Source: a virus
Lineage: Duplodnaviria > Caudoviricetes
Length of the DNA: 64,000 nt
Reading direction: 5' to 3' (one strand)
IMG/VR virus record: IMGVR_UViG_2866048730_000001
Span: 1 to 64,000 of that record
Under the pieces are notes generated by a model, which saw only the letters and a list, made by a program, of their open reading frames with translations, was not told the origin of the DNA and did not search any database. The translations under genes and the position numbers were made by a program. Positions 7,839 through 44,746 of this stretch are shown here, in pieces; positions within the stretch are counted from its first letter, which is position 1; the number at the start of each line of letters is the position of its first letter.

Positions 7839-7841
7839 TGA

Positions 7842-8320: not shown

Positions 8321-8346
8321 GAAAAAGGGCCCCCTCGGGGGCCCTT
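8321..8346 (-). terminator. Intrinsic terminator after repressor
   Basis: AAGGGCCCCC-TC-GGGGGCCCTT hairpin with U-tract on minus strand. Confidence 0.75.
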
Positions 8347-8347
8347 G

Positions 8348-14010: not shown

Positions 14011-14014
14011 GTGG

Positions 14015-24197: not shown

Positions 24198-25328
24198 TCA
24201 CGCCTCCTGGGCTGTGGTGGTCGGTGGCCGCGCCGCCTGGGCTTCGGCCTGGTGGTGTGCGCGCTGCTGGGCTCGCAGGAAGCGGCGCCACGCGTTCAGC
24301 GCGCCCCTGCCGCTGTAGCCTTTGGTGACTTCCGGCCACAGCGCCTGGTACTGCCGGTTCAGCTCGAACAGGCCGCTGCCGTCGAACTGGTCGCGGCGGA
24401 AGACCGGCTCCGCGTAGCAGTGGCAGTGGTCGTGGAAGAGGTCGCCGTCCTTGTAGGTGGCGGACCGCTCGCTCTTGTAGGCGACTCCACGGCTGATCAA
24501 CATCGCGCAGAAGCCGCACGGGGTGCCGGTGCGGGACAGCCGCACATACCCGAGGGCCCGGCGGTCGCGGCTGGTGTGGTTCCAGATCGCCGACCGGCCG
24601 CCGTTCATCGCGACCCGGGAGGCGGCCCCGGCCTGCTGGGCGCCCGCCTGGCGGTGGGCCTCCTCACGCTGCCGGTCCGCGTCCCTGGCGGCCTGCTGGT
24701 TGTCGACCTGCGCCAGCCGCTTGTCGAGGTTGCGGGTGCCGAGCGCGTCGAGGACGGTACGGAGTTCCTCCTCCGCCTCCCGCTCGATCCGCTCCTCGTC
24801 GTCGCGAAGGCCCTCCAACTCCTCGACGAGGATGCGCTCCCAGTCCTCCGCGTGGTCGTCGAGCTGGTGCTCGTCACCGTTCTGCGGTGCCTCCCGGGCG
24901 GCGTCTGCGGTGCGGCTGGCCTGCTCGCTGACCGGCTGGTCGGCCGCCTTGTCCGGGCGGGCGGAGCCGTCGGTGGACGGGGCCGGGGCGGGCACCTCGT
25001 AGGTGCCGGCCAGGGTGGCGAACTGGCGCCGCAGGTCGCCGAGCGTCACCGTCGAGGGCTCCGGGTGGTACGGGTCGGCGACCGTCGTACCGGTCTGGAG
25101 CGCGCGGGCCAGGCGGTAGTAGGCGCGGGCCAGGTCGCGGGCCATGCGCCTGCGGCCCATCACCAGCGTGATCGCCCGACGCAGCCAGCCCGGCGCCGTA
25201 GCCGCGCGTTGCGCGGCCGGGACCTCCGACCAGAGCTTGAACGCCTCGGCGGTGGTCTCGACGCCGATCTGGCTCAGGGCGAGGTGGAACGCCTCGGCCG
25301 CCTGGTCGGCTTCGGCCTGCCGCTTCAC
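24198..25328 (-). CDS. Capsid maturation / MuF-like minor head protein
   Basis: CGFCAMLISRG, FHDHCHC. Confidence 0.75.
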   Translation of the reverse strand: MKRQAEADQAAEAFHLALSQIGVETTAEAFKLWSEVPAAQRAATAPGWLRRAITLVMGRRRMARDLARAYYRLARALQTGTTVADPYHPEPSTVTLGDLRRQFATLAGTYEVPAPAPSTDGSARPDKAADQPVSEQASRTADAAREAPQNGDEHQLDDHAEDWERILVEELEGLRDDEERIEREAEEELRTVLDALGTRNLDKRLAQVDNQQAARDADRQREEAHRQAGAQQAGAASRVAMNGGRSAIWNHTSRDRRALGYVRLSRTGTPCGFCAMLISRGVAYKSERSATYKDGDLFHDHCHCYAEPVFRRDQFDGSGLFELNRQYQALWPEVTKGYSGRGALNAWRRFLRAQQRAHHQAEAQAARPPTTTAQEA

Positions 25329-26767
25329 GCCGCCACCGGGGCGGGCCGGGCGGCCGGCTCAGGCGTTGCCCGCTTGAGCGCACTGGCCAACTGGCCGACC
25401 GAGTCGTCCTGTTCGGCCTTGTGCTCCCAGTCCTCCAGCTCGGTCTGGGTGACCCCGGGCACGCGCGCCCACAGGCCGCGAGCCGGGATGCCGAGCTGTT
25501 CGCGGAGCTTGCCGAGCGCGTCGGCGGACTGCGCGAGGCTGCGGGACTCCATGTCGCGCCACATGACCTCGCCCCGGTAGTCCCCAGCGGAGGCGATGTG
25601 CCCGGACAGCTCAGCCGCGAGACGGAAGACCCTCTCCCACGACTCGCCGAACGCGACGCGGAACTCCGCGATCTTCCTGCTCAGGGCAGTCTCGGCTGCC
25701 AGGAGGGCCTCGGCGCTCAAGTTGGCGATCTGGCCCAGGAGATGGTGCGGCGGGGTCTGGGAGACGGCACTCAGGTGCCGCACGGACATGTCGATCGAGT
25801 CGATGAACCCCTGCAACGGTGTCTCGTCCAGCGAGCCGAACCGCACGTCCGGGTCCTCGGCGAACAAGAACCGCTTCGCGTTGTGGTTGATCGGCAACGG
25901 CACGGGGTTGCCGGCCGCGTCCAGAACCGGCTCGCCCGTCTCCGGGTCGCGCTGGATCGGTGGCGCCATGCCGGAGACCGTCCGCACCTTGGTAGACCCG
26001 TAGGTCTGCGCGAGGAGCAGGTCGAAGACGCTCTGGTTGATGCGGTCCTGGAGGGCGATCATCGGCTCGATCACGCCGACGGTGCGGCCCTCCAGGTCGA
26101 CCGAGGCGGCGAAGCGGGTGACCGGGCATTCGCTCGCGCCGTGCCGCCGCAGATCCGAGACGGTGACGCTGTCCGGGTCGTCCAGCGACAGGAAGCGCAC
26201 CACATACTCGCTGCGGGCATCCCACAGCCGGGCCCGGCCCGGGTCGTCGCCCATCGGCCAGGTCACGACCGTCAACGCCGCGAAGGGCGTCTCGTCGTTG
26301 GCCGGGTCCTCGAACAGCGCGGCCGTCCGCAGCGCGGACAGGCCCTTCGTACGGACCTGCCCGTTGCGGGCCCGCTCGGTCAGCGTGAAGCTGTGGCCGT
26401 ACGTCAGCGCGCCCCGGTACACCGCGGCCTGCCGCGCGTCGAGCCGACTGCGCTGCCAGTGCTCCCACTCCACGGTCGTGGAGTCCGCAGCGGCCGGCAC
26501 GCCCCCGCCCGATTCGCCGGGCCGGAAGGCGTCGACGTACAGAGCCTGGGCGGGCGTCGAGACGAGCAGGGGCATCCAGTTGGACACCGCCCGCCTGGCC
26601 AGGAGCCGGTACTCGTCGTCGGCCTGCGGCGGCATGTACGGGTCGTCGTGCTGCCCGTGGAGGTAGTCGTCGATCCTGCGCAGTCGGGCACCGTCGCGGC
26701 CGAGGACGGCGAGGAGCTGCCGCGCGAGCGCGGCAGGAGAGACGGAGGCGGCCAGGGGAATCACCAC
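25325..26767 (-). CDS. Portal protein
   Basis: 480 aa after terminase; NWMPLLV, QDRIN, NLSAEAL, FGESWE. Confidence 0.88.
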   Translation of the reverse strand: MVIPLAASVSPAALARQLLAVLGRDGARLRRIDDYLHGQHDDPYMPPQADDEYRLLARRAVSNWMPLLVSTPAQALYVDAFRPGESGGGVPAAADSTTVEWEHWQRSRLDARQAAVYRGALTYGHSFTLTERARNGQVRTKGLSALRTAALFEDPANDETPFAALTVVTWPMGDDPGRARLWDARSEYVVRFLSLDDPDSVTVSDLRRHGASECPVTRFAASVDLEGRTVGVIEPMIALQDRINQSVFDLLLAQTYGSTKVRTVSGMAPPIQRDPETGEPVLDAAGNPVPLPINHNAKRFLFAEDPDVRFGSLDETPLQGFIDSIDMSVRHLSAVSQTPPHHLLGQIANLSAEALLAAETALSRKIAEFRVAFGESWERVFRLAAELSGHIASAGDYRGEVMWRDMESRSLAQSADALGKLREQLGIPARGLWARVPGVTQTELEDWEHKAEQDDSVGQLASALKRATPEPAARPAPVAA

Positions 26768-28462: not shown

Positions 28463-28891
28463 TTACTCGGCGAGTCCGAGGTCCTTCTTGTAGTCGGCGA
28501 TGGCGAGCACCGCGGCCGACTGGACCTCGGGCTCCGGCTCGTGCAGCTCGATGCGCACCCGGCGCCGGTCACCCTCGGACACGAGGAGGCGCTCGAAAGC
28601 GGAGTAGATCGTCTGGAGCATCTGGCCGCTCCGTTTACCGGCGTTCTTGTAATGGCTCAGGTCTTCGCACAGAGAAAAGGCGAAGGCCCAGTCGGAATTC
28701 TGGTAGAAGTCCGACTGGCCGGAACTCCTCAGGGAGTCCCACAGGCGCTGGGCGATCGGATGCCAGTCGGGGTCGCCGTCCGGGATTTCCACTTCCCGCA
28801 TGACGCCCTTGGTGACGGGCTGGATATCGCTGCCCTTGCGCTCGCGCGGACGGGCGAGGTCCGCCTCTCGATTGGGCACGGGGCCGGGCAC
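28463..28891 (-). CDS. terS: Terminase small subunit
   Basis: WHPIA..W.SL..SGQ..FY..SDW, L..EGDRRR. Confidence 0.8.
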   Translation of the reverse strand: MPGPVPNREADLARPRERKGSDIQPVTKGVMREVEIPDGDPDWHPIAQRLWDSLRSSGQSDFYQNSDWAFAFSLCEDLSHYKNAGKRSGQMLQTIYSAFERLLVSEGDRRRVRIELHEPEPEVQSAAVLAIADYKKDLGLAE

Positions 28892-29214: not shown

Positions 29215-29580
29215 GAGCCTCCTACGTCAGGCCCGAAGGCAACGGCGAAGGGCTTCGGCAAGCGGCCCCCGGCAGGGGGCCAGCGGGAAGCGGCAACGGC
29301 GAAGGGGCTTCGAGGAGTTGGGCGCCTCCGGCGCCCCCAAGGGGAAGCCTCTACGACTTCAGCCTTCTACTCATATATACGGAGCTCGGGCCTGGATCTG
29401 GAAACGCCTCCAGCCGTGACGGCAGTCACACTCTTGCGATGCTCCGCTCGGAAAGCGAGTTCAAGTCTTGCATTCGAAGTGACACTCTTACTATGGTTCG
29501 TTCGACAACCCGTCAGACGCAACAGGCCCCGGAAGCGCGCCTACGCTCCCAGGGCCCCGACCTAGAGATGAGTCCTCTAG

Positions 29581-32224: not shown

Positions 32225-32253
32225 TTGCAAGAGTGTGACTAGATGCGTAATGT
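32225..32253 (+). promoter_or_regulatory. Early promoter TTGCAA-N17-TAATGT with overlapping operator
   Basis: Near-consensus sigma-70 hexamers with 17-bp spacer; GCAAGAGTGTGAC motif overlaps -35 and spacer. Confidence 0.75.
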
Positions 32254-32260
32254 TCTCCCC

Positions 32261-33195
32261 GTCGCCACCACGGGACGCCAGCCGCAAGACAGGGCAAACT
32301 ACCTGAAGCGGCAAGCAAGTTGAGCGAACGTAAGAGTTGCGAACGCAAGGCCAGCCCGCTAGGGTTGGAACCAACGCCGAACCCGGGAAGCCGAGAACGG
32401 GCCGCAAGAGCGGCGCCGCCGGAAGGATGGGCAGGCGGGATCGCAACCCCGGATCGTAAGAGTTGCGAAACGCGGGACCGGCCCGATAGGGTCGGGCTCG
32501 ACGCCAACCGGCCAGGCTGGAAGGCGCACAGATCTTGAGCTTGACGCTCACCCGGCCCCGCCCCTTCGGGGGAAGGATGTCGCAGCCGCCAGCAGGCGGT
32601 GTGGGTGAGTGCAGGGCATAGGTGGGCTCGAAGGGGCGCGTACGGAGGCGGGGCATCTCGCCGGTGATGGAAGCGCTTTGGAGATGACGCCGAACCCCTG
32701 GGGTACAGCCAACGTAACAGGCAGTGGCGCGGATTCTTCGTCCGCATGTCCCGCTCGTACGGCCTTGGTGAAGCCGCGAACCGCTCCGACTTGTCGGGGT
32801 AGGCGTGGTGGGGAACTGTCCACGGATGCCCGTGGGTGGTGGTGTCAGGGGAACCGTGCGGACTTCCGAGGTCAGGGCTCACCGTTCACTCGAACGGGCC
32901 GGAGAGATCCGGCCGGAACGAAGAGAAGCGGCCGGGGAAACTGGCCAGTCCTGCGGGTGGGGACGGTGAGCCCGGTGGTCGGAGTAATCCTGCCGCTGAA
33001 CCCCGAGATGGACACCCGAGTTGAACTGTCCGGCCCGAACGGGCCGGGTGCCTTCCGGGCGCCGTTGGGCGTAGGTGCGAAGCCGCCGGAAGGTTCTAGG
33101 CGCCCCTATTGTAAGAGTGTAACTAGCCGGGGAGCGCTCACCGCCCGTCGCCCGACGGTGCGGCGCGAGGCCGGGCGCTGCCCGGCGAGACCTTG
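32261..33195 (+). ncRNA. Large structured non-coding leader RNA (candidate)
   Basis: No convincing ORF; many hairpins and long-range helices, several GNRA loops. Confidence 0.6.
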
Positions 33196-33204
33196 AGGAG
33201 AAAC

Positions 33205-33456
33205 ATGAACATCACCGTGACCGGCGTGACCCTGGCCAAGGCTGCCGCCCCCGCGATGAGCGCCGAGGAGACGATCGCCAACCTGACCGAGCGGAACTTC
33301 GAGCTCGGCCGGCTGCTGGACGCCGCCCGTGGCGAGATCGCCCGACGCGACCTGTGCGACGACATCTGGACGGTCGTCTTCGTCGGCCTGATCGAGCGGA
33401 TCGAGGAGCTGGAGCTGATGACCGGCGCCCTGGACGTCGCGGTCTTCAAGGTCTGA
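33205..33456 (+). CDS. Hypothetical early protein
   Basis: GAGGAG RBS, ATG at 33205. Confidence 0.7.
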   Translation: MNITVTGVTLAKAAAPAMSAEETIANLTERNFELGRLLDAARGEIARRDLCDDIWTVVFVGLIERIEELELMTGALDVAVFKV

Positions 33457-33518
33457 GGCGAAACGCCCTTCGGGGCGTCCGCCCGGGGTGGTGCCCGGGT
33501 GCTGATGAGCCAGCCGCT
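33457..33518 (+). ncRNA. Hammerhead ribozyme 1 (type II), cleavage after C33479
   Basis: ggc-GAAA-C[gccc ttcg gggc]GTC-[cgcccggg gtggtg cccgggtg]-CTGATGA-gcc. Confidence 0.9.
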
Positions 33519-33539
33519 CAATGCTGAAAGCGAGAGAAC

Positions 33540-34346
33540 ATGAGCCCCCGTACCTGTGACGTCGATGACGAGGTGCTGGCCGAGTATGCGGCCTACCTGG
33601 AGGACGACTACCGCTGTTGGCCGTCGTGGCAGACCTCCTGGAGCCGCCGGGGCGAGATCCCCACGCACGTCGAGGTGTTTACCTACACCGAGTACCCCCT
33701 GAACCTCATGGACAAGTCCAACTTCCGCACCGCGGCCACACTGATCCGGTGCGCGGCCGACGAGGACTGCGAGGGCACCGAGAATTCGGACGAGCAGGTC
33801 GTCCAGATCGACGGCTCGTCTATTCACTACGGCTCCGCCTACAGCCTGTACGTCCAGGTGTACGAGGGCGGCTGCGACGTGGAGTGCCCCGGCACCCACA
33901 CCGAGGAGTGCGAGCCGGGCTGTGAGCCCGACGTCGACTTCTGCTTCGGCGACGCCTGTGAGGGCGACTGCAAAGGCACCCGCACTTACACCAAGGCGTT
34001 CCGCGAGGCCGTCTCCCTGGCCGAGTACGTGAAGCACGGCTACCCGTTCCTCGATGAAGACGACCACTCCGAGCTGGAGTCCGAGGTGTTCGAGGAGAAC
34101 CTCCAAGAGGCCCTTGACGAGGCGCGCAAGGCGTACGACCTGGACACCGACGAGGACCGCGAGGCCATCGTCGAGCACGCCAGCGAGGACCTGTACGACC
34201 TGAAGTACGAGGGATCGGACGGCGAGGTGTCCTGGATCAGGACGGCCGAGGTGTACGCCGAGCACCGCGACCAGTACTTCCTCGGTCTGGCTCGGGAGAT
34301 CCTGCGGGGTGCCATCCCGGGCCAGATCGAACTGATCGCGGCCTGA
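33540..34346 (+). CDS. Acidic Cys-rich hypothetical protein
   Basis: 268-aa ORF with strong codon bias. Confidence 0.75.
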   Translation: MSPRTCDVDDEVLAEYAAYLEDDYRCWPSWQTSWSRRGEIPTHVEVFTYTEYPLNLMDKSNFRTAATLIRCAADEDCEGTENSDEQVVQIDGSSIHYGSAYSLYVQVYEGGCDVECPGTHTEECEPGCEPDVDFCFGDACEGDCKGTRTYTKAFREAVSLAEYVKHGYPFLDEDDHSELESEVFEENLQEALDEARKAYDLDTDEDREAIVEHASEDLYDLKYEGSDGEVSWIRTAEVYAEHRDQYFLGLAREILRGAIPGQIELIAA

Positions 34347-34360
34347 TTGTAAGAGTGTAA

Positions 34361-34427
34361 CTAGCGAAACGCCCCCTCCGGGGGCGTCGCCCCGGGGTGG
34401 TGCCCGGGGCCTGACGAGCCAGCCGCT
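34361..34427 (+). ncRNA. Hammerhead ribozyme 2 (type II), cleavage after C34388
   Basis: gc-GAAA-C[gccccc tcc gggggc]GTC-[gccccggg gtggtg cccggggc]-CTGACGA-gc. Confidence 0.87.
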
Positions 34428-34447
34428 CACATCGAAACGAGGTCCCC

Positions 34448-34837
34448 ATGATGAAGACCCTGCGCAAGCTCAACCCCTGGGCCAACCGCCGCGCCGAGCG
34501 AGAGGCATGGGCGCGCACCTTCACCTATGCGAGCGAGACGATCCACAAGCTTGACCACGAAGTGGCCGTGCTGCGCTCGGCCGTGGACGAGTTCGCGGAC
34601 GTGTTCAACGACGGCATGCTCGCCTCCATGGTCGGCGGCAAGTTCACCTGCGGTGAGGCCGATTCGCTGGTCCGCTTCTTCGCCCGGGTCGGCCGCCAGG
34701 AGGTCGCCGAGCTGTGGCTGGAGTGCCACGCCGAAGACGACGACGAGGGCGACCTCCACAAGACCTTCGACGACGAGGACACCCCGGACGGGACCGTCGT
34801 CGACCTTGGCGAGTACCTCCTCGAACTGGCCGCGTGA
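34448..34837 (+). CDS. Hypothetical protein
   Basis: GAGG RBS; FTCGEAD...HAEDDDEGDLH. Confidence 0.72.
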   Translation: MMKTLRKLNPWANRRAEREAWARTFTYASETIHKLDHEVAVLRSAVDEFADVFNDGMLASMVGGKFTCGEADSLVRFFARVGRQEVAELWLECHAEDDDEGDLHKTFDDEDTPDGTVVDLGEYLLELAA

Positions 34838-34845
34838 GGCCACAC

Positions 34846-34929
34846 GGCGAAACGCACACGCCTGCCCGCGAGGTGGCCGGCGTGTGCGTCGCGGGGGAGT
34901 GGTGTCCCCCTCCTGACGATGCCAGCCGC
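34846..34929 (+). ncRNA. Hammerhead ribozyme 3 (type II), cleavage after C34890
   Basis: ggc-GAAA-[cgcacacgcc...ggcgtgtgc]GTC-[gcggggga gtggtg tccccctc]-CTGACGA-t-gcc. Confidence 0.85.
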
Positions 34930-34950
34930 ATCACGATCCACGAGGTGCAC

Positions 34951-35697
34951 ATGAACAGCCAGAACAACCCCATGCTCGCCAAGGTCCGGGCGATCCTGGC
35001 CAAGGCCGAAGACCCCGCGGCCTCCCCCGAGGAGGCCCAGGCGTACTTCGCCAAGGCCGCCGCGCTGATGGCGAAGTACGGGATCGAGCGGGCCATGCTC
35101 GCTGACGCCAAGCCGGAGACCGACCGGCCCACCACGCGGGTCATCGTCGAGAGCGGCTCCTACGTGCTCGACCGCGTGAACCTGCTGATGTCGATCAACG
35201 AGGCACTCGGCGGACAGTCCGTCCGCTGGCGCACCTGGGACACGACCGCCCGCCGGTACGTCCAGAAGGTCGAGCTCCACGGCTACGAGTCGACGCTCGA
35301 CCGCGTCGAGATGCTCTACACGTCCCTCATGCTCCAGGCCCTGAACGGCATGAAGCACGGCACGCCCGGCATGGGCGAGTCCACCACCGCCTACCGCAAG
35401 ACCTGGCTCGCCGGGTTCCGCAGCGCGGTGTACCGGCGCCTGACCGACTCCGAGCGCCAGGCCGCAGCCGAGGCCGACCTTGCGCTCCCGGCCGGCAGTC
35501 GCTCGGCCGAGCTCGTGCTCAGCTCCCGCGACGACGCGATCCGCGCCCTCTTCAAGGCCGCGCACCCGAAGGTTCGCACCCCCGCGAAGCGGCGCCTGAC
35601 CGGCTCCGGCTGGAACGCGGGCAACGCGGCGGGCAAGCGCGCCAACCTCGGAGACAACCACCTCGCCAACGCCCGCCGCACCGCCCTGGCCGCGTGA
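34951..35697 (+). CDS. DUF2786-domain protein
   Basis: LAKVRAILAKAED....EEA.AY..KAAALMAKYGI. Confidence 0.8.
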   Translation: MNSQNNPMLAKVRAILAKAEDPAASPEEAQAYFAKAAALMAKYGIERAMLADAKPETDRPTTRVIVESGSYVLDRVNLLMSINEALGGQSVRWRTWDTTARRYVQKVELHGYESTLDRVEMLYTSLMLQALNGMKHGTPGMGESTTAYRKTWLAGFRSAVYRRLTDSERQAAAEADLALPAGSRSAELVLSSRDDAIRALFKAAHPKVRTPAKRRLTGSGWNAGNAAGKRANLGDNHLANARRTALAA

Positions 35698-35701
35698 TCC
35701 C

Positions 35702-35902
35702 GTGATCCGCCGCCACCGCCGATTCCTCCTCGCCCTCGCCGCCGGGGCCCTCCTTCTGGGAGCCCCCATCCAGCACGGCTACGACGCTCGGCACCACGCC
35801 CACGCGACCGTCACCGACTTCAACGACGGCTTTGCCGACTCCAAGCGCGACGACTGCGAGCACGGCTTCGCCGCCGCCTGCCAGTGGCTCGAAGCCCGCT
35901 GA
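35702..35902 (+). CDS. Small secreted/membrane hypothetical protein
   Basis: Signal-like N-terminus; FNDGFADSK. Confidence 0.55.
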   Translation: MIRRHRRFLLALAAGALLLGAPIQHGYDARHHAHATVTDFNDGFADSKRDDCEHGFAAACQWLEAR

Positions 35903-35928
35903 CCACCCACCCCCGAAAGGCAGTTCAC

Positions 35929-36180
35929 ATGGATCAGATCAAGACCCTCGCCCGCGAAGTCCTCGCGATACACCGCGAGGTGGAGGAGTGGCGGGAGGAC
36001 CACGACCCGGGCTCGCAGGAGTGGTACACCCTGGTCAACCTCGCCGACGTGGCGGCCCGGCTCATCTTCGCCCTGCCCGTCGAGATGCTCCCCGAGGAGG
36101 AGGTCCGCACGCCGAACCCCCGCGAGTACCAGGTGCTCGACGAGCTCATGACCGCACTCAACGAGGCGGGCAACCGATGA
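35929..36180 (+). CDS. Hypothetical protein
   Basis: GAAAGG RBS, ATG at 35929. Confidence 0.65.
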   Translation: MDQIKTLAREVLAIHREVEEWREDHDPGSQEWYTLVNLADVAARLIFALPVEMLPEEEVRTPNPREYQVLDELMTALNEAGNR

Positions 36181-36572
36181 GCTGGAAGTACGAGGTGCTC
36201 GTCTGCGCGGCGCCGGACAACCACGACGACTCGTGCGACCTGTGGACCCCGGGCGACACCTTCTTCGACTACGGGTTCCGTGACGCCTTCAAGGCCGCAG
36301 CCACCCAGGCCCACGCCATCGTCCGCACGGTCAGCCCGCACAACGGCAAGACCCGCACCGCCTTCCACCACATCGAAGGTGGCGGCCTGTGCGAATGGTG
36401 CGGCCCGGCGACCGGCCGCCGAGGCCCGTGGATGCGCACACCCGCCGAAGAGCGGTTCATGTGCGAGCCCTGCGTGACCGACGCCCAGAACTCCATGGAC
36501 GCCCTGCACAAGGCGAACGGCTGGTCGCGCAGCCGCTCGTACTGGCCGGTCCTGGAGAAGGCCGAGAGGTAG
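36177..36572 (+). CDS. Cys-rich hypothetical protein
   Basis: ATGA coupling; CEWC, CEPC. Confidence 0.65.
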   Translation: MSWKYEVLVCAAPDNHDDSCDLWTPGDTFFDYGFRDAFKAAATQAHAIVRTVSPHNGKTRTAFHHIEGGGLCEWCGPATGRRGPWMRTPAEERFMCEPCVTDAQNSMDALHKANGWSRSRSYWPVLEKAER

Positions 36573-36582
36573 ATCCCGACAA

Positions 36583-36644
36583 GGCGAAACCCCTGAAAGG
36601 GGGTCGCGGGGGAGTGGTGTCCCCCGCCTGACGAAGCCAGCCCT
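36583..36644 (+). ncRNA. Hammerhead ribozyme 4 (type II), cleavage after C36605
   Basis: ggc-GAAA-C[ccct gaaa gggg]GTC-[gcggggga gtggtg tcccccgc]-CTGACGA-a-gcc. Confidence 0.87.
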
Positions 36645-36664
36645 ACATCGAACTGTGAGGACAC

Positions 36665-37216
36665 ATGCCCGCGACCCTGACCGACATCGACGCCCCGCGC
36701 GTTTGGATCGGCTGCCTGGCCTGCTACAACGCCGGCTATCTGACCGGCGACTGGCACGACGCCGACGTGGCCGACCTGGTCACCCCCGAGGACCTGCACT
36801 CCAAGGCGACCGACCACGAGGAGCTGTGGGTCATGGACCACGAGAACTTCCTCGGCTTGATCGAGGGCGAGTGCTCCCCGGCCCACGCGGCCGAGATGGC
36901 CGAGCTCCTCGCCGAGATCCCCCCGTACGAGCGTCAGCCCTTCGCGATCTGGTTCAGCGTCTACGCCGACGACAACGCCGACCGGGCCGGGCTCGTCGAC
37001 GAGTTCCGCGACGCGTTCTGCGGTGAGTGGCGGTCCGAGGCCGACTACGCCCAGGAGCAGGCCGAGGAGCAGATGGACGAGGAGCGCAAGAAGCTCCTGA
37101 CCCAGTGGCCGTTCACCGACATCGACTGGGAGCGCGCATCCCACCACCTGTTCACCGGCGGCTACTCCGCCGAGGACGCCCCCGGAGGCGGCATCTATGT
37201 CTTCTACATCGGCTGA
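36665..37216 (+). CDS. ardA: Antirestriction protein ArdA
   Basis: VWIGCLACYNAG.LTGDW.D, EELWVMDHENF, GEW.SEADYA, IDWE; highly acidic. Confidence 0.85.
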   Translation: MPATLTDIDAPRVWIGCLACYNAGYLTGDWHDADVADLVTPEDLHSKATDHEELWVMDHENFLGLIEGECSPAHAAEMAELLAEIPPYERQPFAIWFSVYADDNADRAGLVDEFRDAFCGEWRSEADYAQEQAEEQMDEERKKLLTQWPFTDIDWERASHHLFTGGYSAEDAPGGGIYVFYIG

Positions 37217-37319
37217 CTGGCGGCCTGCCTGCCTGGAGTGCGGCGACGTGCCCGAACTCCTCGACGAAGACCTCACCTGCGGCCCGTGCCGCATCCGCAT
37301 CTACCTCAAGGGCCAGAGC

Positions 37320-37541
37320 ATGAAGAAGACCGTCAAGTTCAGCATCGAGCGGACCACCGAGGCCGAGGTTGAGCTCGAACTGACCATCCCGGACGAGTTC
37401 CTCGACGAAGACGGCGAGATCAGCGACGAGGACGGCTTCTGTGAGTGGCTCAACGACAACCCGGGTGAGTGGGATCTGTCGGAGCCCTTCTTCGAGGAGA
37501 TCCAGGACACCACGGTCCTCGAACTCCTCAACAGCTACTGA
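37320..37541 (+). CDS. Small very acidic protein
   Basis: Asp/Glu-rich; start uncertain (37197 or 37320). Confidence 0.6.
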   Translation: MKKTVKFSIERTTEAEVELELTIPDEFLDEDGEISDEDGFCEWLNDNPGEWDLSEPFFEEIQDTTVLELLNSY

Positions 37542-37602
37542 GTTAGCCGAACAACCACGGCACCCGTCCCCCGATCTGCCATGACTGCGGGACGGGCGCC
37601 GA

Positions 37603-37670
37603 GGCGAAACCCCGGTGGTGAGCCGGGGTCGGGGCGGGGTGGTGCCCGCCTCCTGACGATGCCAGCCGAC
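37603..37670 (+). ncRNA. Hammerhead ribozyme 5 (type II), cleavage after C37630
   Basis: ggc-GAAA-C[cccggt ggtga gccggg]GTC-[ggggcggg gtggtg cccgcctc]-CTGACGA-t-gcc. Confidence 0.87.
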
Positions 37671-37694
37671 ATCAATCACTTCGAAGGATACGAG

Positions 37695-37958
37695 ATGCTG
37701 CCCACCCTCATGCCGCCAACCGCGGAACCACCAGCCAACGTGGTCCGCTGCGTGGCGTGCGACGGTCCGATCCGCCACATCGAGCGCAAGCCGTACGAGT
37801 GCGCGCACTGCTCGCGCAACCTCTACCAGCACGACGGTCTGATCCGCCCCGGCTACCACTGGGAGATCACCGATGCCGGGTGGCTCATCAGCGTCGAAAC
37901 GGTGGACGACGAGGACGACGACTATGACGAGACGGAAGAGGAGTTCCTCGGATGGTGA
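37695..37958 (+). CDS. Zn-ribbon hypothetical protein with acidic tail
   Basis: CVAC...CAHC; AAGGA RBS. Confidence 0.6.
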   Translation: MLPTLMPPTAEPPANVVRCVACDGPIRHIERKPYECAHCSRNLYQHDGLIRPGYHWEITDAGWLISVETVDDEDDDYDETEEEFLGW

Positions 37959-38200
37959 AGCCAACCTCTTACCGTCTCCACCTTCCCCTCGACTTCGAGA
38001 CGGCCGCCGACGCGCTCGCCTGGTTCGACGAGGCCCAGCGTTCCGGCTTGATCCCGGCCGACGTCGACCTGTTCCACCCCGACGCCCTCGACACCGCCCA
38101 GCACGGCTTCACCGCCCGGGACCTCATCGTCCGGCGCTCCCGCGACCGGATGGCCTCCCTCGCCGTCCGCGCCGGCAAGGGGGTCCGCCGTGGCCGTTGA
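37952..38200 (+). CDS. Hypothetical protein
   Basis: Overlapping operon ORF. Confidence 0.55.
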   Translation: MVKPTSYRLHLPLDFETAADALAWFDEAQRSGLIPADVDLFHPDALDTAQHGFTARDLIVRRSRDRMASLAVRAGKGVRRGR

Positions 38201-38423
38201 GTACGGGAAGTGCCCATGCGGATGCGGCAAGAGCCGACTCCTCAAGGTGCGCATACCGGCGATCACCGTCATCGTCGATCGCGACCGCTGGACCGAGGAG
38301 GACGGCACCGGGCCCGACAACGAGGCGGTACGCGCCTCCGTCATCGAGTACGTGTGCAGCAGCGTCGAGTGGCTGCCGATGTTCGACGCCACCGGGGCAA
38401 CGATCAAGGTTGCTACCCGGTGA
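38190..38423 (+). CDS. Hypothetical protein
   Basis: CPCGCG; overlaps both neighbours. Confidence 0.55.
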   Translation: MAVEYGKCPCGCGKSRLLKVRIPAITVIVDRDRWTEEDGTGPDNEAVRASVIEYVCSSVEWLPMFDATGATIKVATR

Positions 38424-39670
38424 GCGCCACCGCGGCCGTCCTCCCCGACCTGGAGGAGCTGGTCGACTGGTCGATGGAGGAGCTCGAACAGCTCGCCGCC
38501 CCCTGGCCGGCACGGTGGCTCCTGCCGCCGAAGCCCGGCGATCCGGAGCGCGTCGTCTATCTCTTCGCCGGTCCGGGCGGACTCGAAGTCGGCACGCGGG
38601 ACGTCCTCGGCCGCGAACTCGACATCATCGGTGTCGAGTTCAACAAGGACGCCGCCGCGACCGCGGTGAAGGCCGGGTTCCGGCGGATCGTCGCCGACGT
38701 GCGAACGCTCGACCCGAACCACCCCGCCCTGCGCTGGACCCGCGGCCTGATCGTCACCGCGCCGTGCCAGTGCTGGACGCCCGCAGGCAAGCGTGCCGGC
38801 CAGGACCCGCACAACCAGCAGATCCTTCTGGACATGTTCGCCTGCGCGTGGGAGGCCACCGTTGGCGTCTGGGAGGAAGGCCGCGAGTGCGGGCAGGACT
38901 GCCCGGAAGGCTGCGAGGACTGCTGGGACGGCTGGTCCGGCCCCATCTACGGCATCGACGAGGTCAGGGCCATGGCCAAGGACCTGACCGACGACCGGAT
39001 CGGCCTCCTCGCCGAGGTGGTGATCTGGGGCCTCGCCCTGTCCGTCGCCTCGCCCGACTTCGGGTGGATCGCCATGGAGCAGTCCAGCGCCCTGCCGCAG
39101 GTCATCATCGACGGCATCCGCGAGGAGCTGAAGTGCGCCGACTGGCTGTCCGTGGACTTCCAGATTCTCGACGCCGTGGACTACGGACTGGCCAGCCGCC
39201 GGAAGCGCGTGTTCATGCTCGCCGCCCGGCACCGGTACTCCGTCGCCAGCACCCGCCCCGAGAGCCAGATCCCCACCACCACAGCGGCACAGGCCCTCGG
39301 CTGGCCGCCGGGCGTGCGGGTCAACACGAGAGGCACCAGAAAGACCGCTGGAGGCAATTGCTGGAGCGCGGACAAACCCGCGACCGCCATCACCAGCAAG
39401 ATCCGAGGTTGGTACTGGGAGCACGACAAGGAGAGACGCTTCTCCCTCGACGAGGCCGCCCTCCTGGCCGGGTTCCGCCCCGGACATCCGTGGACCGGCT
39501 CTCGCTCGTCCTGCACCCAGCAGATCGGCGACGTCGTCGCGCCCCCGATGGGCGCCGTCGTCCTCGGGGCACTCCTCGGCATGGCCTGGGAGGCCCGGCT
39601 CCGTGAGTACCTCGCCGAGATCTACAACACCCGCCCGACCGTCCGAAGCGAACACGCGTTGGCAGCCTGA
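38420..39670 (+). CDS. DNA (cytosine-5) methyltransferase
   Basis: LFAGPGG (I), PCQ (IV), EQ (VI variant), YGLASRRKR (VIII), QIGD (X). Confidence 0.85.
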   Translation: MSATAAVLPDLEELVDWSMEELEQLAAPWPARWLLPPKPGDPERVVYLFAGPGGLEVGTRDVLGRELDIIGVEFNKDAAATAVKAGFRRIVADVRTLDPNHPALRWTRGLIVTAPCQCWTPAGKRAGQDPHNQQILLDMFACAWEATVGVWEEGRECGQDCPEGCEDCWDGWSGPIYGIDEVRAMAKDLTDDRIGLLAEVVIWGLALSVASPDFGWIAMEQSSALPQVIIDGIREELKCADWLSVDFQILDAVDYGLASRRKRVFMLAARHRYSVASTRPESQIPTTTAAQALGWPPGVRVNTRGTRKTAGGNCWSADKPATAITSKIRGWYWEHDKERRFSLDEAALLAGFRPGHPWTGSRSSCTQQIGDVVAPPMGAVVLGALLGMAWEARLREYLAEIYNTRPTVRSEHALAA

Positions 39671-39861
39671 TGACCACGAACACCACCGCGCCCGAGCCGG
39701 CCGTCCACCTCGCCTGTCCGTTCTGCAAGTCCACCCACATCACCCTGAACGTCCGCGAGTGGGCCGTCTGCGACACCTGCAAGCGCGGCGACATGTGGGG
39801 CCAGTTCATGATCTGCAACTGCTGGGGCTACGACTGCCCGGCGATCCTCAACTTCTCCTGA
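39670..39861 (+). CDS. Small Zn-finger protein
   Basis: CPFC...CDTC. Confidence 0.6.
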   Translation: MTTNTTAPEPAVHLACPFCKSTHITLNVREWAVCDTCKRGDMWGQFMICNCWGYDCPAILNFS

Positions 39862-39872
39862 AAGAGAGCGAC

Positions 39873-40196
39873 ATGAGCAAGTACACCGACACTGTCACCC
39901 TGACCGACGGCACCACGCTGAAGATCCGCATCGAGCGCGGAATCGCTGGCACGGTCTTCCGCGAGGTCCCCAGCCGCCAGCGACCGGCCGGCAGCCTCAT
40001 GCGGATCGGCACCGCGATGCACCTCGTCACCCGCAGCCACCTGACCCCCATCGTCCCTGACCGCTGGGCCAGCGCCGCCGACGACGCCGAGGGCGCCGAG
40101 ATCGCCCTCGCCTTCTTCACCGAGAGCGCCGAGGCGTGCATCGAGCACGCGAGCGCCGAAGGCATCCCGGTCGAACAGTGCTACTCGATCACCTGA
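39873..40196 (+). CDS. Hypothetical protein
   Basis: ATG at 39873 after purine-rich RBS. Confidence 0.6.
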   Translation: MSKYTDTVTLTDGTTLKIRIERGIAGTVFREVPSRQRPAGSLMRIGTAMHLVTRSHLTPIVPDRWASAADDAEGAEIALAFFTESAEACIEHASAEGIPVEQCYSIT

Positions 40197-40212
40197 TTGT
40201 AAGAGTGTGACC

Positions 40213-40274
40213 GGCGAAACCTCCGAAGGGAGGTCGTCGCGGGGTGGCGCCCGCGGCCTGACGAGCCAGCCACC
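40213..40274 (+). ncRNA. Hammerhead ribozyme 6 (type II), cleavage after C40235
   Basis: ggc-GAAA-C[ctcc gaag ggag]GTC-[gtcgcggg gtggcg cccgcggc]-CTGACGA-gcc; loop GTGGC pairs with tail GCCAC. Confidence 0.9.
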
Positions 40275-40293
40275 AACAAGCAAGGAGACACAC

Positions 40294-40914
40294 ATGGCCA
40301 GCGACCTGCTGATCGAGCGCCTCGACAGCACCGACCCGCGCCACCGAGCGGCGGACCCCTGGACGACCACCTACGCGGTCACCGGCAGGCGGATCACCGG
40401 CACCGTCGAGGTCGCTCCCCGGTTCAACGCACACGGCTGGGAGTTCATGCCGACCGACCTGCACGTGGCCTACGGCTGGGACAAGTACAGCCGCCACGTG
40501 GGCACCCTCCACGTGAACGGCATCCAGCTCGAAGGCGCGCTGCACATGTCCACGAAGACGCCGCCCCGCTGGGCGCTGATCACGATCCGCCGCGTCACGG
40601 AGGGTTCGTACGGCGAAGCCCCTGACGCCACCCAGCGACGCAGCCGGGAGATCCTCCAGGCCGTGGTGCAGGCGCACGTCGAGGACGAGCAGCACGCCTA
40701 CGAGAAGGCCGCCCAGTACGCGCGGCACCTGCGGGCTGGTCGCCTCCATGAGCTCCGCGCCAGCGAGCGCGAGGCCCTGCGGGCACTTCGTGAGGCCCAG
40801 GCTGCGGTTCGCACCGCGAGCGCCCGCATCGACGAGCTCGAAGAGAACTTCGACTGGGTCCTCGGCCTGCATGCACCCCAGCCCACCATCCCGGCCGTGC
40901 CGTTGGATGCCTGA
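40294..40914 (+). CDS. Hypothetical protein with C-terminal coiled coil
   Basis: AAGGAG RBS, ATG at 40294. Confidence 0.7.
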   Translation: MASDLLIERLDSTDPRHRAADPWTTTYAVTGRRITGTVEVAPRFNAHGWEFMPTDLHVAYGWDKYSRHVGTLHVNGIQLEGALHMSTKTPPRWALITIRRVTEGSYGEAPDATQRRSREILQAVVQAHVEDEQHAYEKAAQYARHLRAGRLHELRASEREALRALREAQAAVRTASARIDELEENFDWVLGLHAPQPTIPAVPLDA

Positions 40915-40929
40915 CCCCAGGAGACAGCA

Positions 40930-41502
40930 GTGACCACCGCGATCAAGATGCCCCGGCTCATCGGACTCTCCGGTCTCGCCCAGTCCGGCAAGGACTCCGC
41001 GGCTGGCTTCCTCGCCGATCAGGGCTGGAAGCGCCGCGCCTTCGCCGACCCGCTCCGCCAGATGCTGTACTCGCTCGACCCGCTCGTGCCCAGCCCGAAC
41101 GGCGACTGGCCCATGCGCCTGCGGGCCGCCATCGACACGCTTGGCTGGGACAAGGCGAAGATCCAGATCCCCGAGGTCCGCGTGCTCCTCCAGCGCCTCG
41201 GCACGGATGCCGGCCGGGCCACCCTCGGCGAGACCGTGTGGGTCGACCAGATGTTCCGTCAGCGGGCCTCGTGGGGGCCGACCGTCATCACCGACTGCCG
41301 CTTTCCGAACGAGGCCGACGCGGTGAAGAAGCACGGCGGCCTGGTCGTCCAGATCGTCCGGCAGAACCAGAAGCTCATCCAGGACTCCGGTCACGTCAGC
41401 GAGCAGGCGCTCGCCGGATATCCCTTCGACGTCACGATCCTGAACAGCGGCACCCTGGCGGAGCTCGGCGACAGCATCCGCGCGGTTGCGGCACGAATGT
41501 AA
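40930..41502 (+). CDS. Deoxynucleoside monophosphate kinase
   Basis: IGLSGLAQSGKD, AFADPLR, LQRLGT, DCRFPNE, HVSE. Confidence 0.88.
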   Translation: MTTAIKMPRLIGLSGLAQSGKDSAAGFLADQGWKRRAFADPLRQMLYSLDPLVPSPNGDWPMRLRAAIDTLGWDKAKIQIPEVRVLLQRLGTDAGRATLGETVWVDQMFRQRASWGPTVITDCRFPNEADAVKKHGGLVVQIVRQNQKLIQDSGHVSEQALAGYPFDVTILNSGTLAELGDSIRAVAARM

Positions 41503-41558
41503 GAGTTGATTCGACCGATCCATCGAGATAGTGTGACTAGCGAAGAAAGGGGTCCCCC

Positions 41559-42008
41559 TTGACCAGCACAAACACCCTCGTTCGCACCCCTGCGATCCTG
41601 GACCAACTGCCCATCGGTACGGAGGTCCAGGACTCGGACGGCGACAGCGGGACCAAGACCGCCGACGGCTTCACCGTCCCCGGCTGGAAGACCCCGTTGG
41701 ACGCCGACTGGTTCAACTACCCCGTGACCGTCCTCAACCCGACGCCGGCCACCTCCAACCTCGTCGCTGACCTGTCCAGCGAGCTCAACCTGCACACCGT
41801 GCTCGAAGAGCTCCGACAGCTCCTCGACAAAGCCGAGGCGATGTACCAGCGCCAGGACGCCGCGATCGAGGCACTGGCCAGCCGGCCCGGTCTCAACACC
41901 GCCAAGATCGAGCGGCTCGAAGCCCGCTACGACCGCGAGGCCGCCCGGATGCTCGATGAGGTCCTCTCTGTCATCGAGACGCTCACCGACCGCCGGAGCG
42001 GCCCGTGA
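41559..42008 (+). CDS. Hypothetical protein
   Basis: TTG start after AAGGGG. Confidence 0.6.
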   Translation: MTSTNTLVRTPAILDQLPIGTEVQDSDGDSGTKTADGFTVPGWKTPLDADWFNYPVTVLNPTPATSNLVADLSSELNLHTVLEELRQLLDKAEAMYQRQDAAIEALASRPGLNTAKIERLEARYDREAARMLDEVLSVIETLTDRRSGP

Positions 42009-42433
42009 GGCTGACGCCCCGCAAGGAGGAAGTCTCCGCGATCAAGGCCGTCCTGGAGTCGCCCGACTTCGACAACGCCGACCAGATGGCCAAGGCGGTC
42101 ATCAAGGAAGTCGGCGAGGTCCTCCAGATGCGCGATTGGTACGCCCTCGTCCACACCTGGAAGGACGGCAGCCGCGGCCTGAACTTCGGTCCCTTCGCCA
42201 ACGAGGCCGAGATCAAGACCTTCGCCTCGAAGATCGCCATCGGGGGCACGGGCAAGGTCGTCAAGCTCTACAGCCCCGGCGTCATGCTCGCCAATGTGAA
42301 CGGCAAGAAGGGCTGGACCGGCTACTGCCAGGACCCCGACTGCGGCCACGCCCCCGCCAACCACTCTGCCGTGAGCGCCGCTCGCGGTGCCTGCCACATC
42401 CCCACCTGCCCCTGCGGGCAGTTCCGAAAGTAG
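42005..42433 (+). CDS. Hypothetical protein with Cys/His C-terminus
   Basis: Coupled ORF; CGH...CH...CPC. Confidence 0.65.
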   Translation: MRLTPRKEEVSAIKAVLESPDFDNADQMAKAVIKEVGEVLQMRDWYALVHTWKDGSRGLNFGPFANEAEIKTFASKIAIGGTGKVVKLYSPGVMLANVNGKKGWTGYCQDPDCGHAPANHSAVSAARGACHIPTCPCGQFRK

Positions 42434-42448
42434 ACGGAGGAACCGGCT

Positions 42449-42685
42449 ATGACGGCAAAGACCGTCGACTTCAGGGCCTGCCCGTGCGGGTCGAAGCGCG
42501 CCTACGAAGACCCCCGAGATGCCGCCAAGGCGCTCGGCAAGGCCCAGGCCAAGCGCTCCAGGATCGCCGACCGCCGGGGCACCGGCCGAGGCATCCGCCA
42601 CGAGAGCCGCACCTACCAGTGCGACTACGGCATGTACCACCTCACCTCCCAGTCCCGCACCCAGTACCTGGGGGTCGCCGCTTGA
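42449..42685 (+). CDS. Small Zn-binding basic protein
   Basis: CPCGSKRAY...YQCDYGMYHLTS. Confidence 0.65.
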   Translation: MTAKTVDFRACPCGSKRAYEDPRDAAKALGKAQAKRSRIADRRGTGRGIRHESRTYQCDYGMYHLTSQSRTQYLGVAA

Positions 42686-43162: not shown

Positions 43163-44443
43163 GTGGCCACCGTCTTTCAGCCCTGCAAAGAAGAAGAGCA
43201 GGATCGTTTCTATCCCTGCACGAAGGCCCGCTGCGGCCACAAGTGGCTCGTCCGCTACCGGGAGCCGGGCGGCCGGTCCGGGAGACAGCGCGAGAAGAGC
43301 TTCGCCAAGAAGACCGGGCCCGACGGCGCTGACGCCTTCGCCAGCAAGGTCGAGCACGACAAGGGCATGGGCGTCTACCTCGACCCCCAGCGGGGCGCCA
43401 TCACCCTCCGGGCCTACGCCAAGGAGTGGCTGGAGCGGCAGATCCTCGCGGAGGGCACCTTCCGGAACTACGAAGGCTTCATCCGAAACCACCTGATACC
43501 GCACCTCGGGCGCAAGACCCTGGCCGGCCTCGCCCAGAGCGACTTCGAGCGGTTCGTCGCCACCCTCCACCGCAAGGGCGAGGGCATGGCCGCCTCGACG
43601 ATCAACGACCGCATGAACATCCCGATCGCGATGCTCGAAGCGGCGATCGTCGAGAAGCGCATCTCCGAGAACCCGGCCAAGGGCGTCAAGATCCCCCGGA
43701 CGAGCAGTATCGCCGTCGACGAGGACGAGATCCCCACCCTCGAAGAAGTCGATCTCCTCGGCAAGCACATCTCCCCGCAGTACCGCCTGACGGTCTACCT
43801 CATGGCGGGGGCCGGGCTACGGCCAAGCGAAGCTCTCGCCTTCGCCTGTGAATGCCGCCGCACCGAGTTCATTCGAATCCGCTGGCAGGTCAGCGCGAAG
43901 GCGAGCCGCGGCGACAGCCGAACCAGGTTCGTTCCGCTGAAGCACCGCGCGGAAGGCGAGTACCGGGATATCCCGATCGCCCCGTTCCTGGACGAGGAGA
44001 TCGACGCCCACGAGGAGCAGTGGGCGCCCATCCCGGTCGCCTTCAAGGACAAGGCTGGTAAGGACAGGGAGCTCGAAGTCTTCTTCGCCCCGCGCGAGCG
44101 GGGCAAGGGCACCATGCCCACGGCCAACACCTTCGGCTACCACTTCAAGAAGGCATGCATCGCGGCCGGGCTCGTCGACTCGAACGGCAAGCCGAAGTAC
44201 ACCCCGCACGCTCTGCGACATTTCTTCGCCTCGACCGCCCTCGCGAACGGAATTCCTATCCACGAGGTCTCCCGATGGCTCGGACACAAGTCCATCAAGA
44301 TCACCGTGGACACCTACGGACACCTCGTCCCGGGTGCCTGGCACCGCTGCCGCGAGGTCATGCAGGCCGCCATGCGGCCGGTACCGTTGGACCTGGATCG
44401 GCCGGCACCCGGCGGTGCCGACGACTACGGCCCTGCCGCGTAG
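43163..44443 (+). CDS. int: Tyrosine integrase
   Basis: GLRPSEA, HALRHFFAS, LGH, TYGH. Confidence 0.93.
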   Translation: MATVFQPCKEEEQDRFYPCTKARCGHKWLVRYREPGGRSGRQREKSFAKKTGPDGADAFASKVEHDKGMGVYLDPQRGAITLRAYAKEWLERQILAEGTFRNYEGFIRNHLIPHLGRKTLAGLAQSDFERFVATLHRKGEGMAASTINDRMNIPIAMLEAAIVEKRISENPAKGVKIPRTSSIAVDEDEIPTLEEVDLLGKHISPQYRLTVYLMAGAGLRPSEALAFACECRRTEFIRIRWQVSAKASRGDSRTRFVPLKHRAEGEYRDIPIAPFLDEEIDAHEEQWAPIPVAFKDKAGKDRELEVFFAPRERGKGTMPTANTFGYHFKKACIAAGLVDSNGKPKYTPHALRHFFASTALANGIPIHEVSRWLGHKSIKITVDTYGHLVPGAWHRCREVMQAAMRPVPLDLDRPAPGGADDYGPAA

Positions 44444-44445
44444 CT

Positions 44446-44746
44446 GTGCTGACCTGTTCCGACGGTGCTGATTCCGTGCTGACTTGGACCCTCAGAATTG
44501 ACGTTTCTGCAGGTCACAGCGTTGTGGTGGAAGTTCCGCTTCAACGTGTGATGAGTGACATAGCACGCCACTCCTGATCTGGCAAACGCGCAGGTCAGAG
44601 GGGGTCCCTCCCTTCGGGGGTGGACCCCCTTTTCATTCCCGTGCTGACTTGGTGCTGACCTGGAAGCACCCCCCATCACCCCCCAGAACCCCTTCCGTGC
44701 TGACTTGGTGCTGACCATCCGAACGGGTGATGGGCGCGGCGCTGAC
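44446..44746 (+). repeat. att region: GTGCTGAC arm-type direct repeats flanking putative core
   Basis: Copies at 44446, 44465, 44476, 44641, 44652, 44697, 44708 (variant at 44739); 22-bp direct repeat at 44639 and 44695. Confidence 0.75.
44599..44634 (+). terminator. Intrinsic terminator in att region
   Basis: AGGGGGTCC...TTCG...GGACCCCC-TTTT. Confidence 0.65.

Follow-up and report, generated by a model that had tools for sequence, protein, structure and literature searches.

Type II hammerhead ribozymes between the gene blocks of the early arm of an R4-like Streptomyces prophage and their putative role in transcript processing

The 64,000-nucleotide stretch of DNA analysed here (the window; positions 1 to 64,000 of the IMG/VR virus record IMGVR_UViG_2866048730_000001) carries an integrated R4-like Streptomyces phage, and the early arm of this phage, which consists of replication, anti-restriction, and nucleotide-metabolism genes, raises the question why the same short element recurs six times in the gaps between its genes. 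A reading made from the sequence only had taken these elements to be complete type II hammerhead ribozymes by which a polycistronic early RNA processes itself. As judged from the sequence evidence given below, it is probable that the elements are six active type II hammerheads, referred to here as HH1 to HH6, that cleave a long transcript into cassettes with hairpin-capped ends and a uniform leader.

Identity of the six elements

The whole window was scanned with the Rfam 15 covariance models (cmscan). Six matches were above the gathering score of any family, and all of them were to Hammerhead_II (RF02276; gathering score, 37 bits), on the plus strand and intergenic, with scores of 42.1 to 59.9 bits and E-values of 7e-10 to 3e-5 for the whole 64 kb. 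These are exactly the six places where the sequence-only reading had put its ribozymes, and the scan, together with a reading of the core in the sequence itself, bears out their identity as complete type II hammerheads. All six copies match RF02276 from end to end (positions 1-66), with the consensus core, the helices, and the AGCC tail. Since the model matched nothing in 14 control genomes, nor in 116 of the 120 genomes that were sampled from the same genus, six copies are far beyond chance. A permissive Rfam scan of the region from 27 to 47 kb returned the six hammerheads, two chance-level matches, and no other ribozyme class. Likewise, a clade-specific covariance model, R1, found no seventh copy within the window, and when its filters were turned off the sole added copy was HH7, which lies in a second phage-like element of the same genome.

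Each copy reads GAAA, a closed stem III, GUC, a stem I of eight positions with the loop GUGGYG, CUGAYGA, and an open stem II of 3 bp, which is GGC/GCC except in HH2 where it is AGC/GCC. The covariance-model alignments and the structure counts show the type II permutation, in which loops close off stems I and III and stem II is open. After stem II, the 3' tail forms a pseudoknot of 4-5 bp with loop I in 6/6 copies. Compared with RF02276, the 3-bp stem II, an extended stem III in HH3, and one extra nucleotide between A9 and G10.1 set these elements apart; the extra nucleotide is found in three of the six copies (HH3, HH4, and HH5) and in half of the copies of the lineage.

HH1 (33456-33519; 58.9 bits) starts at the stop codon of an 87-aa open reading frame (ORF; 33193-33456), has its predicted cut after C33479, and is followed by an ATG at 33540. 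HH2 (34362-34428; 59.9 bits) would be cut after C34388, ahead of the ATG at 34448. In HH3 (34845-34931; 42.1 bits), with the predicted cut after C34890 and the ATG of a DUF2786 gene at 34951, stem III is 22 nt longer, stem I has one C-U mismatch, and the extra nucleotide after A9 is a U. HH4 (36582-36646; 47.9 bits) has an extra A after A9, a predicted cut after C36605, and, as its next ATG, that of an ArdA anti-restriction gene at 36665. HH5 (37602-37671; 49.6 bits) has an extra U after A9, and its predicted cut after C37630 precedes an ATG at 37695. In HH6 (40212-40275; 52.1 bits; predicted cut after C40235; next ATG, 40294) the loop GUGGCG pairs perfectly (5 bp) with the tail GCCAC. The cuts would give cassettes of 909, 502, 1715, 1025, and 2605 nt, and when checked in the sequence both the cut sites and the cassette sizes of the sequence-only reading were found to be correct. 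HH5 alone among the junctions is preceded by a strong hairpin (about 37563-37597; 8 or more bp, no U-tract), which lies between the stop codon at 37541 and the ribozyme and might act as a factor-independent terminator or pause, or else as an additional 3' stabiliser.

Conservation of the catalytic core and of the leader

Forty copies, namely, the seven of the window's genome and those of the phages Alvy, Bowden, and Salutena, were aligned. The model to which they were fitted had been built from the copies of the window itself, and this favours the structure, but controls in which the pairing partners were slid, together with the independent Rfam model, show that the structural signal is real in spite of it. 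All 40 copies agree at each of the eleven core positions (C3, U4, G5, A6, G8, A9, G12, A13, A14, and the A15.1-U16.1 pair), and at N7 they have C or U. The triplet at which cleavage takes place reads GUC in 34 copies, GUU in five, and GUA in one and never ends in G, as the NUH rule demands. It had been claimed that the stems vary between copies while their pairing is kept, and the counts agree: in the 40 copies 97.0% of the helix cells are paired as against 39-54% with slid partners, and in the seven copies of the window's genome alone 94.8% are paired as against 43-52%. Compensatory (double) changes are found in 13 of the 17 pairs of the 40 copies. The covariation score was 0.544 as against 0.148 in shuffles and at most 0.116 with slid partners, and none of 500 shuffles attained the observed score or the observed percentage of pairing. 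The pseudoknot has compensatory variants too, the loop/tail combinations being GUGAC/GUCAC, UGGGCA/UGCCCA, GGGU/ACCC, and GGCU/AGCC when relatives are included, and a copy's own tail pairs with loop I over 4.43 bp on average as against 3.38 +/- 0.12 bp for shuffled tails. Thus, the invariant core, the NUH rule, and the covariation of helices and pseudoknot show selection on RNA catalysis. A further candidate feature, a masking hairpin that a conserved CAG in the 3' tail could form with the core CUG and that is seen in the folds, was dropped since copies whose pseudoknot sequence differs do not keep it.

The position of the elements relative to the genes is equally regular. They had been described as lying on the sense strand between genes, after stop codons and some 60 nt before the next start, and in the six copies of the window the next start codon with a Shine-Dalgarno (SD) sequence ahead of it was measured to lie 58-64 nt past the predicted cut. 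Over the 40 copies the median of this distance is 59 nt, with 32 of them falling within 51-64 nt, and the chief exceptions are copies that come first in a tandem pair. On the other side, the gap between the upstream stop codon and the ribozyme has a median of 15 nt. Since these distances are fixed, the repeating unit is a stop codon, the ribozyme, a short spacer with the ribosome-binding site (RBS), and a start codon.

Probable processing of the early transcript and competing explanations

The window contains a prophage, with genes for a small terminase subunit, a portal, ArdA, a methylase, and an integrase and an ORF of tape-measure size. The structural arm is on the minus strand and includes the small terminase subunit gene (28463-28888), an SPP1-type portal gene (25325-26764), and the tape-measure-sized ORF of 1059 aa. 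A divergent gap at 28.9-29.58 kb separates it from the plus-strand arm, which begins with a DnaD/replication-initiator-like gene (29581), extends as far as a tyrosine integrase gene (43163-44440), and is followed by the host D-Ala-D-Ala ligase gene. From 33.4 to 40.3 kb there are six gaps of at least 83 nt, all of them with a hammerhead inside, and every other gene junction there is an overlap or a gap of at most 26 nt. Since the hammerheads are in all of the long gaps and in none of the short ones, the ribozymes separate translationally coupled blocks of one to six genes.

All of these blocks are on the plus strand. The first cassette (33540-34346) and the second (34448-34837) each hold a single gene of unknown function, phrog_4313 and phrog_1178, respectively. 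The third (34951-36572) has the DUF2786 gene and three small genes with overlaps or gaps of at most 26 nt, and the fourth (36665-37541) has the ArdA gene (PF07275; E = 4e-19) and one small gene that overlaps it. The fifth (37695-40196) consists of six translationally coupled genes, among them one for a C5 cytosine DNA methyltransferase (38420-39670). The part after the last cut (40294-42685), in which there is no further hammerhead, holds an unknown gene, a deoxynucleoside monophosphate kinase gene (40930-41502), and three more genes. Pfam and PHROG searches gave no function for most of the cassette genes. No terminator-like site was found from 32.0 to 44.6 kb, and hence none inside the array; the scan of 28-46 kb gave five such sites as against 6.5 expected, and a scan of the same 28-46 kb for consensus sigma-70 promoters gave none, both kinds of scan being uninformative for Streptomyces-type signals.

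In a hammerhead, the 2'-OH of C17 attacks its own 3' phosphate, leaving a 2',3'-cyclic phosphate and a 5'-OH. If the early arm is transcribed as one long polycistronic RNA, each motif of 64-87 nt would fold, stems III and I forming as hairpins and the 3-bp stem II closing last, while the pseudoknot of loop I with the 3' tail would hold stems I and II in parallel, and it would then cut itself co-transcriptionally after C17 of GUC. The products would be five internal RNAs of the sizes given above together with one flank on the 5' side and one on the 3' side. The upstream products would all terminate in the GC-rich hairpin of stem III and bear the 2',3'-cyclic phosphate there, the downstream products would have their 5'-OH on a stem I nucleotide that is fully paired, and all downstream products would share a leader of about 59 nt made up of stem I, the core remnant, the pseudoknot tail, and the SD sequence. 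Every coupled gene block would in this way become an independent message whose stability and translation start are freed from the upstream context, and by analogy it is likely that this uncoupling of the blocks from their neighbours is the benefit of the array. We infer that there is a single early transcript, that it is cleaved in vivo, and that the benefit follows; such self-processing is plausible by analogy with other prophages, which provide its only direct experimental precedent.

Synthetic ribozyme insulators such as RiboJ were reportedly introduced by Lou et al. in 2012. Like these insulators, for which the term and the use are described in PMC7536230, the elements would be self-cleaving hammerheads in a 5' leader that strip off the upstream context and leave a uniform leader beginning with a hairpin before the RBS. 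Unlike RiboJ, they are natural, have the type II topology, and are repeated along an operon. The likeness is thus one of function and not of family, and the insulation is presumed here.

The precedent comes from Perreault et al. (2011, PLoS Comput Biol; PMC3088659), who described clustered hammerheads that flank single genes or short blocks in prophages and proposed that they cut long phage transcripts into gene-length mRNAs. Three triple arrays, from prophages of Clostridium scindens, Azorhizobium caulinodans, and Agrobacterium tumefaciens, cleaved completely in vitro and into the predicted sizes, one of them also in E. coli; the pseudoknot was required for fast cleavage at 0.5 mM Mg2+, and ardA was found directly downstream of hammerheads in Agrobacterium and Legionella. 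The present array is like those clusters in that several hammerheads of one strand lie around single genes or short blocks of a prophage, in the type II topology with its pseudoknot between loop I and the 3' tail, in the proposed role in processing a long phage transcript, and in that HH4 directly precedes ArdA while HH7 precedes ArdA by one small ORF. It is unlike them in that it belongs to the R4-like Arquatrovirinae of Streptomyces, a lineage absent from the main text of that paper, and in that the arrays are larger and more regular (this prophage has six copies, its cultured relatives have 9-12, and another genome of the genus has 17), are found in the early arm only, and have the RBS fused to them at a fixed distance of about 59 nt. 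The sequence-only reading had suggested that an organised array of this kind may be new for a Streptomyces phage, and this stands in part. In the literature that we searched on hammerheads or ribozymes with Streptomyces phages or actinobacteriophages no description of R4-like arrays was found, whereas the clusters and the idea of transcript cutting were already published in 2011. Prophage hammerhead clusters have a new home in the R4-like Streptomyces lineage but are not a new kind. A 2017 review (PMC6155905) treats the function of bacterial and phage hammerheads as an open question and restates the 2011 prophage arrangement.

One part of the earlier proposal, that a 5'-OH end would resist decay, is not secure. 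The host encodes RNase J (508 bits), RNase E/G, and the RNA ligase RtcB (419 bits), and in Bacillus subtilis the glmS ribozyme leaves a 5'-OH product that RNase J1 specifically degrades (Collins et al. 2007, as reviewed in PMC3328962). Since that product is targeted by RNase J1, a 5'-OH is not protective in itself, and any protection of the 5' end would come from the flush 5' hairpin. The glmS ribozyme has the same cleavage chemistry, a downstream product with a 5'-OH, and a Gram-positive host with RNase J. Its product is destabilised, whereas here the product would carry a flush 5' hairpin and an RBS, and by analogy the opposite outcome is plausible.

Several points weigh against the processing of a single early transcript or against its benefit. 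Copies of an asymmetric 13-mer, GTNACACTCTTAC, adjoin the 5' ends of HH2 (34349-34361) and HH6 (40199-40211) and could mark internal promoters or operators, so that a single transcription unit is an assumption, and there is the strong hairpin ahead of HH5. The insertions between A9 and G10.1 in three copies and the stem I mismatch of HH3 may slow cleavage. Whether the messages gain in stability is uncertain, as the RNase J of the host may degrade 5'-OH products. A ribosome terminating 0-15 nt upstream would overlap the strands of stems II and III, and folding may therefore compete with translation. Finally, although folding of the junctions recovers stems I and III, the minimum free energy z-scores of -0.04 to -1.75 are not significant; unremarkable z-scores are usual for GC-rich sequence, and they were not used as evidence.

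Among the other explanations the one that survives best, rather unlikely as we judge it, is that the main role of the elements is at the DNA level. The hammerhead of 60 nt would then be a shared linker at which R4-like phages recombine to shuffle cassettes, each consisting of the 3' half of a hammerhead, the RBS, and a gene block, with a conserved core, variable stems, and cleavage of secondary importance. The content and order of the cassettes do differ between this prophage and Alvy, Bowden, and Salutena, with hammerheads at the junctions, and a gene that has a hammerhead in Alvy and Bowden has only a remnant of one here, at 41.5 kb. The similarities of the two ribozyme halves are nearly independent of each other (r = 0.16), as is seen in HH3 and HH4, which are 95% identical in the stem I half and 17% in the stem III half. 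These half-similarities are, however, based on very short stems of low complexity and could reflect convergence. Recombination alone does not explain the invariant core, the NUH rule, and the covariation of helices and pseudoknot in the 40 copies, and a linker may coexist with cleavage rather than replace it.

It is also conceivable, if improbable, that cleavage takes place and lowers expression, the exposed 5'-OH recruiting RNase J, which would then break down the RNA downstream or pursue the polymerase. Expression would then decrease in a gradient along the arm, or there would be less read-through in the lysogen. The RNases of the host and the fate of the glmS product (PMC3328962) fit this explanation. 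Against it, the 5' nucleotide of the downstream product would be paired in an 8-bp GC-rich hairpin without a single-stranded overhang. Flush 5' stem-loop stabilisers of this sort hinder 5'-end-dependent nucleases. Moreover, in nearly all copies an RBS and a start codon follow at a fixed distance, which suggests that the processed RNA is meant for translation.

That the released cassettes are joined again or circularised, either by the reverse hammerhead reaction on chimeric ribozymes or by the RtcB of the host, is very doubtful. After cleavage the two halves are held together by stem II alone, and since stem II is common to the copies (GGC/GCC, or AGC/GCC in HH2) the two ends of any cassette, or of different cassettes, can rebuild a complete hammerhead; furthermore, 2',3'-cyclic phosphate and 5'-OH ends are substrates of RtcB. 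However, a stem II of 3 bp favours dissociation of the products, and Perreault et al., who searched for products of prophage arrays that were spliced or circular, detected none (PMC3088659). There is little chance that reverse ligation or RtcB yields circular or re-assorted early phage mRNAs, which, if true, would be an RNA-level cassette-shuffling or circular-mRNA system in a bacterial virus. The weakest explanation, that the motifs are catalytically dead repeats serving only as hairpin terminators, stabilisers, or protein-binding sites, can appeal to two strong hairpins that could protect RNA ends without cleavage and to the core insertion in three copies, but it is hardly credible when all 40 copies agree in the eleven core positions, the freely varying stems stay paired, the cleavage nucleotide follows the NUH rule, the pseudoknot covaries, and relatives of the same design cleave in vitro (PMC3088659). 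Hence, we favour self-processing of the early transcript.

Related phages and further features of the prophage

When the region was compared by blastn, it matched Streptomyces phages of the Arquatrovirinae, and the alignments started and stopped at hammerheads. HH1 alone matched 53 Streptomyces phage records, in which the annotation under the match was 'none', 'hypothetical protein', or 'acetyltransferase'. A survey of related phages had been suggested along with the array, and Rfam scans of whole phage records gave 11 Hammerhead_II matches in Alvy, 11 in Bowden, 12 in Salutena, nine in R4, and ten in phiScoe1. In these five phages all copies are within the right (early) arm and on its strand, with none in the structural arm. 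Orthologous junctions retain a hammerhead with altered stems: the ribozyme is directly upstream of the DUF2786 gene in four genomes (the window's, Alvy, Bowden, and Salutena) although the stems differ. In the arrays of the lineage several hammerheads lie ahead of anti-restriction genes. Judged from these sequences, type II hammerhead arrays are a trait of the lineage and a hallmark of the cultivable R4-like Streptomyces phages.

The locus thus shows a whole lineage of cultivable and genetically tractable phages with dense and regular hammerhead arrays, namely, R4, Alvy, Caelum, and their relatives, which grow on Streptomyces lividans or S. coelicolor. Since the phages are tractable and the arrays are restricted to the early arm and fused to an RBS, the function of the hammerheads can be tested by ordinary phage genetics, and the main use of the lineage is as such an experimental system. 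Four things are added to earlier work: the arrays are spread through a lineage of cultivable phages, they keep to the early arm, their leader is fixed and has the RBS fused to it, and they are linked recurrently to anti-restriction genes.

In the sample of 120 genomes of the genus four other genomes carry copies. The densest array is in G042 (locus L014, G042:C21:49001-63000), where 17 type II hammerheads with a stem II of GCC/GGC lie on one strand within 10.3 kb, one gene per ribozyme. A single ORF starts 61-70 nt after the predicted cut in 16 of the 17 hammerheads and mostly stops about 7-13 nt ahead of the next one. These ORFs are of 83-270 aa; a Pfam family was found for none of the ten tested and a PHROG for only two of the ten. 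HH7, the seventh copy in the window's genome, is about 24 kb beyond the window (L011, G000:C1:4514001-4534000, at 10850-10914), scores 37.6 bits, and has an imperfect stem I. Downstream of it are a 62-aa ORF, an ArdA gene (11187-11726), and a C5 methylase gene (13489-14778).

In Alvy (L008, 1484-1550 and 1553-1617) and Bowden (L009, 1498-1565 and 1568-1632) two hammerheads stand back to back, and such a pair would release an RNA of 69-70 nt whose ends are a 5'-OH and a cyclic phosphate. None of the phage records examined annotates the ribozymes, and of practical concern is that several small 'hypothetical protein' calls or gene starts overlap them. In Alvy (L008) this is so for the coding sequences at 2902-2976, 1536-1811, 3129-3263, 7179-8009, and 8335-8712, and starts preceded by an RBS about 59 nt past the cut, for example at 7278 and 8383, look likelier than the annotated ones. 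Gene calls overlapping hammerheads may thus be a systematic annotation error in this phage group.

The 13-mer GTNACACTCTTAC has 12 matches with at most two mismatches as against 1.5 expected, and nine of the 12 are inside the prophage, in or beside intergenic gaps and in one constant orientation relative to the local direction of the genes. These are at 6716, 8986, 26772, 29425, and 29479 on the plus strand and at 32227, 33111, 34349, and 40199 on the minus strand. Two copies fall within 29420-29500 (plus strand) together with TTGCAT-N18-TATGGT, placed between a TTGCAT and a TATGGT hexamer at 29.47 kb, in the divergent gap between the small terminase gene on the minus strand and the first early gene at 29581, and this region is a candidate promoter of the early arm. 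The repressor of mycobacteriophage L5 has 'stoperator' sites, and by analogy the pattern of the 13-mers resembles these or a phage-specific promoter. In its exact 15-mer form the operator-like motif does not occur in the loci of Alvy, Bowden, and Salutena. At 41524-41545 a degenerate 13-mer is followed by ACTAGCGAA, a GCGAA remnant, with no ribozyme after it. The nearby gene at 42005 has an ortholog in Alvy and Bowden with a hammerhead directly upstream, and the site is probably the scar of a lost hammerhead.

Aminoglycosides bind hammerhead ribozymes. Those made by Streptomyces block an early step of phage infection (PMC9239200), and that the hammerhead-rich early transcripts of R4-like phages are a target of aminoglycosides is speculation. 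Upstream of HH1, about 940 nt between two copies of the 13-mer (32240-33190) are without a credible ORF, there being no third-position GC (GC3) signal, no PHROG match to the longest frame, and no Rfam match. This stretch contains repeated CGTAAGAGTTGCGAA boxes, and it may serve as a long leader with structure or as a non-coding RNA. Immediately past the integrase gene, within 44463-44716, a 22-nt repeat, CCGTGCTGACTTGGTGCTGACC, is present in three direct copies, of which two are identical, along with a terminator-like hairpin at 44616-44629, and the repeats and hairpin may be arm-type sites of the integrase or att sites at the end of the prophage.

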